A program made the translations under genes and the position numbers. This document shows, one piece after another, positions 9,796 to 13,283 of a DNA stretch of 57,763 nucleotides; within the stretch, counting starts at the first letter, position 1, and each line of letters starts with the position of its first letter. Below the pieces are notes generated by a model, which had not been told where the DNA came from, ran no database searches, and worked only from the letters and a program-made list of their open reading frames with translations. The stretch is taken from sequence record SRR22947727_1950; one strand, 5' to 3'.

Positions 9796-10248
9796 CTACT
9801 TCTGGGAGAAGAAGTCCGTGAGGAGTGCTCCGCACTCGCCTGCAAGAACACCACCCACAACTTCATCGACACGATGAGGCAGAGTCCGATCGCGAACCAG
9901 GTCGTGCTTGCTGCCGGCCGCTCCGGCTTTGTCATCCCAGGCGCCAAAGACAAGGCGGGAGATGCGGGCTTGGGTGATCGCTCCTGCGCACATCACGCAC
10001 GGTTCAAGGGTGACCACCAGGGTGTGATCACTGAGGTTGGTGTTCTCCAGGGCGTGACCGGCTAGTCGCAACGCCACAACCTCGGCGTGAGCTGTGGGAT
10101 CGTGATCCCGCTCCTTCGTGTTCGTCGCGCTCGCGATCACCAGGCCGGAGGGGTCAACAACCAGTGCCGCTACCGGCACATCACCGGTTGCAAGAGCCTC
10201 AGAGGCCAGCTCAAGTGCCATCCTCATCAGGGACGTGTCATCCATCAC
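9796..10248 (-). CDS. tadA: tRNA adenosine(34) deaminase
   Basis: [25 protein letters not shown]. Confidence 0.9.
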
Positions 10249-10293: not shown

Positions 10294-10929
10294 ATGCAGG
10301 TGCACGTAGCGGATCACCCCCTCATCTCCCACAAGCTCTCGGTTTTGCGAGATGAGACAACACCCTCTCCGGTTTTCCGTGCACTCACATCAGAGCTCGT
10401 CACCCTCCTCGCCTATGAGGCGACCCGTCACATTCGGGTGGAAGATCACCAGATCACGACCCCGGTGACCACCACCACGGGCAAGAAGCTGGCGAAGCCA
10501 CGACCCGTTGTCGTACCCATCCTCCGAGCTGGGCTCGGGATGCTGGAGGGCATGACCCAACTGTTGCCGAGCGCCGAGGTGGGCTTCTTGGGCATGGTGC
10601 GCGACGAGAAGACGCTGCAACCGAGCGTCTATGCAGAGCGTCTCCCTGAGGACCTCTCTGATCGGCAAGTCTTCATTCTCGATCCCATGTTGGCCACCGG
10701 TGGTTCGCTGCTGCAGGCCATCAACTACGTCTTTGACAAAGGCGCCACCGAAGTAACGGCGGTGTGTCTCCTCGGCGCGCCAGAAGGACTTGCGGCCCTG
10801 GAAGAAGCCACCAAGGGGCGCAACGTGACAATCGTGTTGGGGGCTCTCGATGAGAAACTCAACGAGCACGGCTTCATTGTTCCGGGCCTCGGTGATGCCG
10901 GTGACCGACTCTACGGAACTGTCGGATAA
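10294..10929 (+). CDS. upp: Uracil phosphoribosyltransferase
   Basis: [36 protein letters not shown] at 10294. Confidence 0.97.
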
Positions 10930-10940
10930 CGTCATACGAC

Positions 10941-10970
10941 TTGACGCTCCACCCAGCATGGCCCGATAAT
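10941..10970 (+). promoter_or_regulatory. Sigma-A promoter producing a leaderless transcript that starts at the poly-Cys uORF
   Basis: TTGACG-N18-GATAAT, then 6 nt to ATG at 10977. Confidence 0.7.
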
Positions 10971-10976
10971 CAAGCC

Positions 10977-11048
10977 ATGCAGAGCTCTCGTGTCACCCTG
11001 GTGCCCGCGGGTATCCGTGGCCTCTGTTGCTGTCGAATGTGTGGCTAA
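10977..11048 (+). CDS. Cysteine-rich leader peptide (uORF), 23 aa
   Basis: MQSSRVTLVPAGIRGLCCCRMCG*; 4 Cys in the last 7 codons; Cys codons complementary to 11080-11096. Confidence 0.75.
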   Translation: MQSSRVTLVPAGIRGLCCCRMCG

Positions 11049-11098
11049 TCCCCCGTTCACCGTCCTTGAGCCCTCTGCCCCTCACGAATCGACAGATT

Positions 11099-11698
11099 AT
11101 GACAACCTCTCCTCGCGAACCACGAGGGTTCGCCCTCTATGTGGGTATCACTGAAGCTGATGCCCAGGCGGCGGGCATCAGCCTGCAGCAACTCGTCACC
11201 GACCTCAAGAAGACCGTGACAGATCACGTCCCGGGGACGGAAACCCACGCTGCTATCGCTCTAGCGCCCCTCGGTGCTGGCGGTAAGCACCTCGACATTG
11301 TCCGCATGGCTCTGCACGACCCCATCGCCCTCGGGAAGCTTGCGAAGGACGCTAAACCACAGGATTCCGAGGTTGTCATCGACATTTCCCGGAAGCGGGT
11401 TCTGATTGATGATGAGCAAGCGCCGCTCACCTACAAGGAGTTCGCACTCTTGCAATTCCTTGTCTTGCGCGAAGGGCAAACGGTAAACCGCGAGGTGATC
11501 ATTGAAGCATTGTGGGCGGAGGGAGACGAGGATGCTCCAGTCGCTCGCACCATCGATGTCCACGTTCGCAGGTTGCGATCAAAGCTCGGTCGCTACGAGG
11601 ACATCGTCCGCACCGTCCGAGGGGTTGGGTACCGCTTTGACCGTCACGCTGATGTCACCATCAACTACGGTGTTGCCCAGTCTCCCGACATGATTTAG
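11099..11698 (+). CDS. Orphan regulator with OmpR/PhoB-type winged-helix DNA-binding domain and non-receiver N-terminus
   Basis: LTYKEFALLQFL…RTIDVHVRRLRSKLG…IVRTVRGVGYRF; no recognisable receiver domain; ATG 11099 preferred over tracked TTG 11027. Confidence 0.9.
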   Translation: MTTSPREPRGFALYVGITEADAQAAGISLQQLVTDLKKTVTDHVPGTETHAAIALAPLGAGGKHLDIVRMALHDPIALGKLAKDAKPQDSEVVIDISRKRVLIDDEQAPLTYKEFALLQFLVLREGQTVNREVIIEALWAEGDEDAPVARTIDVHVRRLRSKLGRYEDIVRTVRGVGYRFDRHADVTINYGVAQSPDMI

Positions 11699-11724
11699 GG
11701 CGTTTTTCCGCAGAAAAACAGCCC
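11698..11724 (+). terminator. Stem-loop after the regulator gene
   Basis: GGGC-GTTTTTC/CGCA/GAAAAAC-A-GCCC inverted repeat; no strong U tail. Confidence 0.5.
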
Positions 11725-11726
11725 AC

Positions 11727-11761
11727 TAGACACCGTTACCATTCTGTTATATATTCGTCAC
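11727..11761 (+). promoter_or_regulatory. Promoter overlaid by three 11-bp-phased direct repeats
   Basis: TAGACA-N17-TATATT; GTTAC(11735)-N6-GTTAT(11746)-N6-GTCAC(11757). Confidence 0.65.
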
Positions 11762-11864
11762 ATCGTCAGTTGTTTGCTGTGACAGCTCTCGTAAATGTGA
11801 TTGCAAGACACTCTTGGTGCAAGGGAATAGGGCCGGTCGCTCGCCTCAGCGGCCGGCCCTTATC
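11762..11864 (+). ncRNA. Candidate ~100-nt small RNA
   Basis: Own promoter upstream, no credible ORF, 13-bp GC-rich hairpin at 11829-11860; the next gene has its own -10 (TACGCT). Confidence 0.55.
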
Positions 11865-11909
11865 ACGTCCCGAACCCCGCTCCCAGGACGGGGCTCTACG
11901 CTCTCTGGT

Positions 11910-13283
11910 ATGACTTCTGGGCCTGCCATCGTGTGGTTGCGAAACGATCTCCGACTCCACGACAACCCCGCTCTTGATGCAGCGGTAGCCACGGGTGAAC
12001 CAGTTCTCATCGTGTATGTCCGGGATGAGGTGACCCCCGGTTCGCGTCCGCTCGGGCGAGCATCACAGTGGTGGCTTCACCATTCGCTGACCACTCTGCG
12101 CACCTCCATCGAGGCTCTCGGGGGCTCGCTGGTCCTCCGCACGGGATCGGGTCCCGATGTCATTCGAGAACTGGTGGCAGTGACCGGTGCGTCGGCAGTG
12201 TTCTGGAATCGACGCTATGGAATCGCGCGCGAAGCCGACGCTCTCCTGAAGGAGTCGCTCCGGGGAGCAGGTCTCACCTGTGAGAGTTTTGCCGGCAACC
12301 TCCTCTTTGAGCCTTGGACTGTTCGTACCGGAGAGGGAAACCCCTTCAAGGTTTTCACCCCTTTCTGGCGAGCAGCCCTCGCCGGTGAGCCACCACGCAC
12401 CCCGCTCGCGGCCCCCACAGCACTGCGCGCGCCGGAGGGTGTGCCGAGCGAGAACGCCGAAGACTGGGATTTACTCCCCACCAGTCCCGATTGGTCGAAC
12501 GGCCTTCAGGACATGTGGACCCCCGGTGAAGCCGGCGCCCACCAACGGCTCGAGGATTTTGTCGAGAACACGCTGAAGCTCTATCACCGACGGGATGAGC
12601 CGGGCCCGGTCACGACCTCGCGCCTCAGCCCCCACCTCAGTTTTGGGGAAATCAGCCCCCATCAGATTTGGGCGGAACTCGATCGCTCTCTTCCCGCCGA
12701 GGCAGAAAAGAACAAGGCCAAGTTCCTCTCCGAAGTGGGATGGCGGGAGTTTTCCTACAACATCCTGTTTCACTTTCCCGAGCTTGATACGAAGAACTTT
12801 CGTGCCGAGTTTGATCACTTCCCCTGGGGAGACGTTGATCCAGCGTTGCTGAAGGCTTGGCACAGAGGCACAACGGGAGTTCCCCTGGTGGATGCTGGAA
12901 TGCGGGAGCTGTGGCACACCGGTTATATGCATAACCGTGTGCGCATGGTGGTCGCCTCGTTCCTGATTAAGAACATGCTGGTCGATTGGCGTGTGGGTGA
13001 AGCCTGGTTCTGGGACACCCTCGTCGATGCCGACGAGGCCAATAATCCCGCAAGCTGGCAGTGGGTGGCCGGTAGCGGTGCAGATGCTGCCCCCTACTTC
13101 AGAGTGTTCAACCCGATGTTGCAAGCTGAGAAATTTGATCCCCAGCAGGACTACATCCGACGGTGGATTCCCGAGTACGGAACCCCTGACTACCCCAGTG
13201 AGCCAATCATCGACCTCAAAGCCAGTAGAGATCGAGCGCTCAGAGCGTTCGACGAGCTCAAGGCCTTGCGCCAGCCTTCGTAA
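11910..13283 (+). CDS. phrB: Deoxyribodipyrimidine photolyase (cryptochrome/photolyase family)
   Basis: WLRNDLRLHDNPAL, TSRLSPHLSFGEISP, GYMHNRVRM, WQWVAGSGADAAPYFRVFNP. Confidence 0.93.
   Translation: MTSGPAIVWLRNDLRLHDNPALDAAVATGEPVLIVYVRDEVTPGSRPLGRASQWWLHHSLTTLRTSIEALGGSLVLRTGSGPDVIRELVAVTGASAVFWNRRYGIAREADALLKESLRGAGLTCESFAGNLLFEPWTVRTGEGNPFKVFTPFWRAALAGEPPRTPLAAPTALRAPEGVPSENAEDWDLLPTSPDWSNGLQDMWTPGEAGAHQRLEDFVENTLKLYHRRDEPGPVTTSRLSPHLSFGEISPHQIWAELDRSLPAEAEKNKAKFLSEVGWREFSYNILFHFPELDTKNFRAEFDHFPWGDVDPALLKAWHRGTTGVPLVDAGMRELWHTGYMHNRVRMVVASFLIKNMLVDWRVGEAWFWDTLVDADEANNPASWQWVAGSGADAAPYFRVFNPMLQAEKFDPQQDYIRRWIPEYGTPDYPSEPIIDLKASRDRALRAFDELKALRQPS

Follow-up and report, generated by a model that had tools for sequence, protein, structure and literature searches.

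What is the role of a short open reading frame that carries a run of cysteine codons near its end and lies just upstream of a gene for a winged-helix transcription factor? We consider this question for a stretch of 57,763 nucleotides from sequence record SRR22947727_1950 (hereafter, the window) and, for the genome-wide work, for genomes of its relatives. Judged by its closest named records, the window derives from a Pontimonas-like bacterium of the Microbacteriaceae. A sequence-only reading of the locus had proposed a poly-cysteine leader peptide whose Cys codons sequester the downstream initiation region, so that a ribosome stalled on them would open the helix and permit translation of the regulator. 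As we describe below, our analysis points instead to a leader that senses both methionine and cysteine and gates an activator of a sulfur regulon, a reading to which, taken as a full chain, we assign a probability of about 0.6. The features on which the argument rests are collected in Table 1.

Table 1. Features of the leader–regulator locus in the window.
Feature	Position	Strand	Basis or remarks
Sigma-70-type promoter	-35 TTGACG 10941-46; -10 GATAAT 10965-70	+	10/12 positions match
Leader ORF, 23 codons	10977-11048	+	ORF reading; homologous leaders at 125/135 regulator loci
Putative sensor codons Cys-Cys-Cys-Arg(CGA)-Met-Cys-Gly-stop	11025-11048	+	codon statistics over 117 leaders containing Arg-Met
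Invariant core CGA-ATG	11034-11039	+	CGA in 117/117 leaders containing Arg-Met
5' strand of predicted sequestering helix	11030-11036	+	pair probability 0.93-0.98; invariant in 12/12 clade sequences
3' strand of helix, in regulator initiation region	11089-11095	+	pair probability 0.93-0.98; invariant in 12/12 clade sequences
Spacer, 50 nt, C-rich (22 C, 8 G)	11049-11098	+	small hairpin 11055-11071; possible Rho loading site
Regulator, 199 aa	11099-11698	+	novel N-terminal domain and OmpR/PhoB winged helix; no Cys
Small RNA, conserved, with its own promoter	11727-11865	+	11-nt-period repeat 11734-11750

A Met- and Cys-rich leader precedes the regulator across its family

The upstream ORF claimed at 10977 is present as described, and its translation is MQSSRVTLVPAGIRGLCCCRMCG followed by a stop codon. 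Both hexamers of the promoter in front of it occupy positions that are conserved across the Pontimonas clade, and more broadly, in 102 of the 112 cases where a fit was obtained (searching 30-44 nt), a -35 hexamer lies 36-37 nt 5' of the leader ATG. Because the -10 box in the window ends 6 nt 5' of the leader ATG, this geometry predicts that transcription starts at the ATG itself and that the mRNA is leaderless. One RNA contig spans 11001-11214, and thus both the leader and the start of the gene, and none covers 10910-10970; since the contigs (all contigs, obtained from 4 of 20 runs) carry neither strand nor 5' end and do not establish a single transcript, we do not count them as support. At six loci (L018, L020, L029, L030, L038 and L058) the leader promoter carries, overlapping its -10 box, an inverted repeat of the type TGCAAG-n3-CTTGCA that could be a repressor site in some genera.

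We compared 135 regulator sequences, made up of 134 loci and the window (L014, near-identical to L001, was dropped from later counts). A script recovered leaders at 122 of them, and inspection added L103, L107 and L109, giving 125/135; the ten sequences without a leader comprise eight orthologous loci and two paralogues. At L011-L013, L033 and L095-L097 the regulator has been kept and the leader lost; at L011-L013 and L033 the regulator gene itself looks leaderless, and at L095 the last part of upp overlaps its start. A typical leader peptide has about 33 residues and ends in ..GMMMP..VMCCRMCx before the stop codon. Leader residues are 13% Met and 11% Cys, compared with a total of only 7 Cys codons in 122 regulator ORFs, although the Cys counts are partly built in because the leader search demanded at least two Cys. 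Two or more consecutive Cys codons occur in 104/122 leaders (the window has three), and a Met run in 91/122. Among the 117 leaders with an Arg-Met core, Cys stands at position -1 in 113, at -2 in 96 and at +2 in 109. The core stands two codons before the stop; in these 117 leaders, which were chosen by their amino acids, the Arg of Arg-Met is encoded by CGA in every case, as against 172 of 2863 Arg codons (6%) in the regulator ORFs. In the streamlined lineages L098-L101 plain Met/Cys runs take the place of the core, and in families f55 and f64 Met/Cys-rich leaders of unrelated sequence precede the regulator homologue.

Consecutive Cys codons, whose conservation in homologous leaders the sequence-only reading had proposed to check, are common, and complementarity between leader core and regulator start is found in 28/121 leaders. 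A pure cysteine sensor is not supported by the comparison, in that Arg(CGA)-Met is what stays constant and most leaders carry a Met run. Searches of the leader peptide against NCBIfam, Pfam and Rfam gave no match, and hence no homology to catalogued leader families. Spacers between leader and regulator range from 50 to 309 nt (median 168), and their lengths modulo 3 (43/38/40) indicate no fixed frame, which rules out a fusion of leader and regulator by frameshifting or readthrough. Taken together, we are highly confident that the leader is a real and strongly conserved sulfur-amino-acid leader.

A predicted helix joins the leader codons to the regulator start

In the window, CTGTCGA and TCGACAG are perfect complements, as the sequence-only reading had noted, with TCGACAG ending 3 nt short of the regulator ATG at 11099; throughout the Pontimonas clade this initiation region is without a clear Shine-Dalgarno sequence. 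Of the proposed extensions of the helix, GTG with CAC (11039-41 with 11083-85) is predicted with a pair probability of 0.94 and the GG/CC pairing, in the form of GGC 11043-45 with 11077-79, with about 0.69. The T11038-A11087 pair was not recovered, T11038 being predicted to pair with G11086 instead (0.71). Pairing of 11023-29 with 11090-96, the alternative register, is complementary by eye with one G-U pair but stays below a pair probability of 0.3.

Folding energy distinguishes this region from shuffled sequences modestly at best: the 161-nt region is as stable as its shuffles (z -0.06) and the 86-nt core somewhat stabler (z -2.16), and a complement of equal length arises by chance in 67 of 5000 random 20-mers from the window. 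Our judgment that the helix is non-random rests on conservation, as both strands are invariant in all 12 clade sequences while the first 15 leader codons vary among them. There is no compensatory change in the helix among these 12 sequences, whose invariant pairs are uninformative on covariation, and the GTG/CAC extension is disrupted in 2-3 of them.

To represent a ribosome on the leader, we forced a 28-nt footprint to be unpaired and computed the cost of opening the regulator start region. For the window, this cost falls from 5.96 to 3.55-3.62 kcal/mol with codons 16-22 in the A site, in line with the predicted effect of a footprint, and is higher with most earlier codons. The gain of about 2 kcal/mol is modest, and the site also opens with the ribosome placed at the stop codon (3.94 kcal/mol) or at codon 7 (4.6 kcal/mol), so control would have to rest on dwell time. 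In the Pontimonas clade, placing the ribosome on the Met codon lowers the cost in 12/12 leaders, by a mean of 3.86 kcal/mol, compared with 0.31 for an early position. These calculations make it fairly likely that a stalled ribosome relieves occlusion of the start site in this clade.

Outside the clade the picture changes. For the other 109 leaders the mean fall is -0.05 kcal/mol, with the modelled ribosome helping in 22 and hindering in 28, and the pairing of core with start that is present in all 12 clade leaders is infrequent overall. The claim that a stalled ribosome opens the helix is thus supported by the model within the clade, with no net effect beyond it, and the helix of the window is not supported as the general mechanism. 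Start regions outside the clade nonetheless contain complements of the leader more often than control starts do: TCGAC occurs in 21/109 vs 8/395 controls and CATCAT, which pairs with Met runs, in 38/109 vs 7/395, ratios that overstate the enrichment because kin are not independent. The two motifs are almost mutually exclusive, co-occurring in 1/121, and neither is found near the start in 50/121 leaders.

The regulator is a receiver-less winged-helix protein

The sole Pfam domain of the regulator is PF00486. It has no match to a receiver domain, which rules out a two-component response regulator, and nearly all of its NCBIfam matches cover the C-terminal half only, all of them far below cut-off. 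The DNA-binding domain is closest to that of GlnR in both sequence and fold, but the protein is not GlnR: it lacks the PF21695 N-terminal domain, and a separate true GlnR gene is present in G001, G030 and G007. The N-terminal domain is modelled as short helices, and a homodimer model scored 0.76, compared with 0.00 for the best control, with runs agreeing in at least 87% of contacts and pLDDT of at least 73; the mark applied admits 21 of 30 known homodimers and 0 of 23 monomers. On the basis of this model, the N-terminal domain probably self-associates and the regulator probably dimerizes constitutively. Homologues occur in 147/151 genomes of the family and in 13/251 of the class. Within the order they are confined to families f1, f2, f55 and f64 (20/91 genomes), and an f64 query detected the regulator in two further f64 genomes. 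An Atlas search returned only unnamed winged-helix clusters.

A candidate sulfur regulon

Clustering of neighborhood ORFs, many of which were in the wrong frame, revealed no conserved sulfur gene beside the main copy of the regulator. Both of the paralogues that we examined, by contrast, are divergent from sulfur genes: L112 faces a tandem rhodanese gene, and L113 faces metQ-metN-metI together with an SfnB-like gene. In the promoters of metQ, cysK, metY, sfnB-like and cysD genes we recognized a repeat of 10-nt period, GTnAC-n5-GTnAC, which with at most one mismatch occurs in 39/87 sulfur upstream regions vs 12/308 controls, with the caveat that the motif was picked after these promoters had been viewed. 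By gene, the counts are 17/27 for metY, 12/23 for metQ, 7/24 for cysK, 3/8 for sfnB and 0/5 for cysD. The enrichment peaks at a spacer of 5; other spacers, such as 7 with 17/87 vs 19/308, show little. At metY the repeat lies about 10 nt upstream of the -35 hexamer, and therefore in an activator position. With the same mismatch limit, the repeat is absent at L112 and present twice at L113. A genome-wide scan of G001 with the strict pattern showed no enrichment (6 vs 18 control matches, mostly in coding DNA).

Across the order, the repeat precedes metY at 32/52 loci in regulator-bearing families (f1 22/36, f2 2/7, f55 5/5, f64 3/4) vs 2/47 in the others, a comparison in which 30 of the 36 loci from the family of the window itself (f1) were already in the discovery set. 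The four regulator-bearing families may also form a single clade, and would then provide one independent contrast. GlnR scores over cut-off in all five genomes examined that lack both regulator and repeat, in 2/4 of f55 and in 0/3 of f64, and was not found in five genomes that have the repeat; GlnR thus does not explain the repeat. Considering these lines of evidence together, the regulator is likely an activator of the sulfur regulon, and the suggestion that control of a transcription factor would amplify the signal gains support from the candidate regulon, namely from the neighbors of the paralogues and from the repeat.

The Arg(CGA)-Met core occurs on its own in sister families

In families without the regulator, 14/47 metY loci carry mini-leaders, mostly of 7-8 codons, which end in CGA-ATG-x-x-stop; none was found at the 52 loci of regulator-bearing families, and the background of the pattern is 9 per 1.16 Mb. 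Several mini-leaders have no Cys ahead of Arg-Met, and one lacks Cys altogether; a metX-like gene follows one of the mini-leaders, and seven have a -10-like box just 5' of the ATG. In 6 of the 14 cases a pattern of our own making finds, upstream, a motif that we take to belong to a SAM-riboswitch family. The mini-leaders that we noted in other families of the order (L340, L345, L346, L349, L351, L355, L383, L385, L387, L391, L392, L399-L401 and L406) often fold into a hairpin that spans the stop codon of the mini-leader itself.

Reading of CGA by I:A wobble is slow. No tRNA-Arg(UCG) is present among the 46 tRNAs of G030, a complete genome of the same genus, and CGA must therefore be read there by this wobble. 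A tie between CGA and sulfur through TtcA-dependent tuning of decoding was discarded, as TtcA exceeds its cut-off in 0/5 genomes. Just 5' of the leader, the window also contains upp (10294-10929, + strand) and, divergent from it, a gene (9796-10248, - strand) that by its motifs is presumably tRNA adenosine deaminase-like and would make the inosine for reading CGA; its position beside the leader probably reflects old synteny and not a functional link.

A conserved small RNA lies downstream of the regulator

The core of the small RNA is found in 106/151 genomes of the family, in single copy in all but one, and it follows the regulator on the same strand within 330 nt at no fewer than 39 of the 135 loci. 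It is predicted to form three hairpins (z -3.54), the first and last of which show covariation across 67 distinct copies, and a search of Rfam gave no match, so that it is apparently uncatalogued. A repeat of 11-nt period overlies its promoter in 66/67 copies. We rejected this repeat as a site for the regulator because sulfur loci yielded 0 sites in a three-box scan and the strict repeat pointed to genes of cell-wall type and of mixed kinds; at the small RNA, it may be an MtrA site. At L232 and L233 the repeat also precedes a conserved gene that follows a DivIVA-like gene, which, with annotation made by eye, would fit a cell-wall regulon.

Proposed mechanism and alternatives

In the scheme that we favor, where we infer translation, stalling, the direction of control and DNA binding, a leaderless mRNA would start at the leader ATG. 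With tRNA-Met and tRNA-Cys charged, the ribosome would pass the last codons, and the Cys-Arg codons would pair with the regulator initiation region; the regulator would then be poorly translated, and Rho might in addition terminate the untranslated C-rich RNA. Under shortage of Met or Cys, the ribosome would linger on C-C-C-R(CGA)-M-C, aided by the slow I:A decoding of CGA, and would cover the 5' strand of the helix, which according to the computed opening costs would free the start site. With no phospho-receiver and probably a constitutive dimer, the amount of the regulator would be its switch. The protein would probably bind GTnAC-n5-GTn(A/T)C just upstream of the -35 hexamer and activate metY, metQ/metNI, cysK and organosulfur-scavenging genes, and this single sensor would replace the per-operon leaders and SAM riboswitches found before metY in sister families.

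A classical attenuator of the trp/his type was rejected, as a search of the + strand over 10880-11950 gave no terminator-like site. The same sensor might instead act mainly through Rho-dependent transcription attenuation, the stalled ribosome shielding or refolding a C-rich Rho site after the stop codon and pairing at the start being secondary or clade-specific. Spacers contain more C than G in 122/122 leaders, with a median C-skew of 0.28 (0.58 in the window), where control 5' regions have 0.06-0.07; they are mostly long, no consistent opening effect is seen outside the clade, and Rho-type control has been weakly proposed for actinobacterial cys leaders in the available part of PMC1262725. 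The spacer of the window, however, is just 50 nt, 7-14% of control regions reach the median C-skew of the spacers, complements at the start are enriched over controls, and the accessible text on the mycobacterial leader Ms5788A describes its attenuation as translational (bioRxiv 10.1101/834739). We therefore consider Rho an unlikely main output, while the skew means that it may contribute, or dominate, in lineages with long spacers. Another possibility would accept the leader as a real attenuator but have the n5 repeat bound by a different OmpR-family protein, leaving the regulator with other targets such as the adjacent small RNA. GlnR half-sites are GTnAC, and the half-sites of the n5 repeat resemble those of GlnR and MtrA; the small RNA lies close to the regulator at many loci, with its 11-nt repeat almost universal among copies. 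Across families, however, the n5 repeat tracks the regulator and not GlnR, and the 11-nt repeat is also found before cell-wall-type genes, as would fit MtrA. We regard this arrangement as improbable, if less so than the one centered on Rho.

Two further proposals concern what is sensed, and both strike us as very doubtful. The CGA-AUG core could arrest the ribosome in response to a metabolite or tRNA state (e.g., SAM, or inosine-34 on tRNA-Arg), with the Cys and Met runs as secondary tuning: CGA is invariant though its RNA partner varies by lineage, mini-leaders stand in tandem with SAM-riboswitch-like elements in 6/14 cases, and wobble alone reads CGA in G030. Against this, CGAATG is usually base-paired, which may itself explain the codon, lineages L098-L101 have plain Met/Cys runs where the core would be, and the search for TtcA was negative. 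A pure cysteine attenuator of the Ms5788A kind would fit the Pontimonas-clade leader, with 4 Cys and one internal Met only, and all counted leaders have at least two Cys, but the search required as much; the frequent Met runs and the several metY/metX mini-leaders without Cys ahead of Arg-Met speak against it.

Comparison with known systems

Canestrari et al. (bioRxiv 10.1101/834739) describe, in the part of the preprint available, polycysteine leaderless sORFs of mycobacteria, including Ms5788A, as a 'Cys ribulon'; translational attenuation was demonstrated for Ms5788A, and per-operon Cys leaders are set against a dedicated factor with binding sites as alternatives. Like Ms5788A as presented there, the leader of the window is a short ORF with Cys codons by the stop, sensor codons predicted to pair with the next start and a likewise predicted relief by stalling, its leaderless status being predicted. 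The system considered here departs from Ms5788A in its Arg(CGA)-Met core, which is invariant, in the Met run that most of its leaders add, in a helix of 7 bp where Ms5788A has an extended duplex, and in placing one leader ahead of a transcription factor. Seliverstov et al. 2005 (PMC1262725) reported actinobacterial Cys leader peptides upstream of cys operons and of cbs, and in that account they share with our leaders the Cys codons near the stop, the lack of an intrinsic terminator and a pyrimidine-rich spacer; for methionine operons its available text reports that no RNA regulatory structure is conserved upstream, and neither this text nor the abstract mentions the regulator.

Rv0485A is named as a Cys attenuator in the accessible part of PMC13096801. 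Both Rv0485A and the whiB7 uORF resemble the leader of the window as uORFs that gate a DNA-binding protein, with a different factor family, and the whiB7 uORF differs further in sensing antibiotics through termination. Rv0485 is a regulator; to our knowledge, neither Met sensing nor a sulfur regulon is known for Rv0485A or the whiB7 uORF. GlnR (PF21695 and PF00486; PDB 8HML, 8HIG, 8HIH), the best match to the DNA-binding domain, is likewise a non-phosphorylated OmpR-type protein; its repeat has a period of 11 nt, that of the candidate repeat here being 10 nt. In the open-access literature that we searched, we found no description of the leader, the regulator, the n5 repeat or the small RNA, nor of a methionine-sensing attenuator as a type.

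Implications

A broader interpretation, which we advance tentatively and at slightly less than even odds, is that Arg(CGA)-Met-x-x-stop is an old and portable ribosome-based methionine sensor. Four actinobacterial families would use a Met/Cys-rich leader (in two of the four it contains the core together with Cys and Met runs) to gate one receiver-less activator, the ribosome replacing a sensor kinase and running the whole sulfur regulon, and sister families would use the core operon by operon. The regulator is at present annotated merely as a winged-helix domain; if our reading is correct, it would give a name to a sulfur regulator and its operator for many actinobacteria of soil, plants, water and cheese. 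It would also establish a methionine-sensing attenuator with an invariant rare-codon pair, and a system in which attenuation and a transcription-factor regulon, which the mycobacterial work framed as alternatives, are combined.
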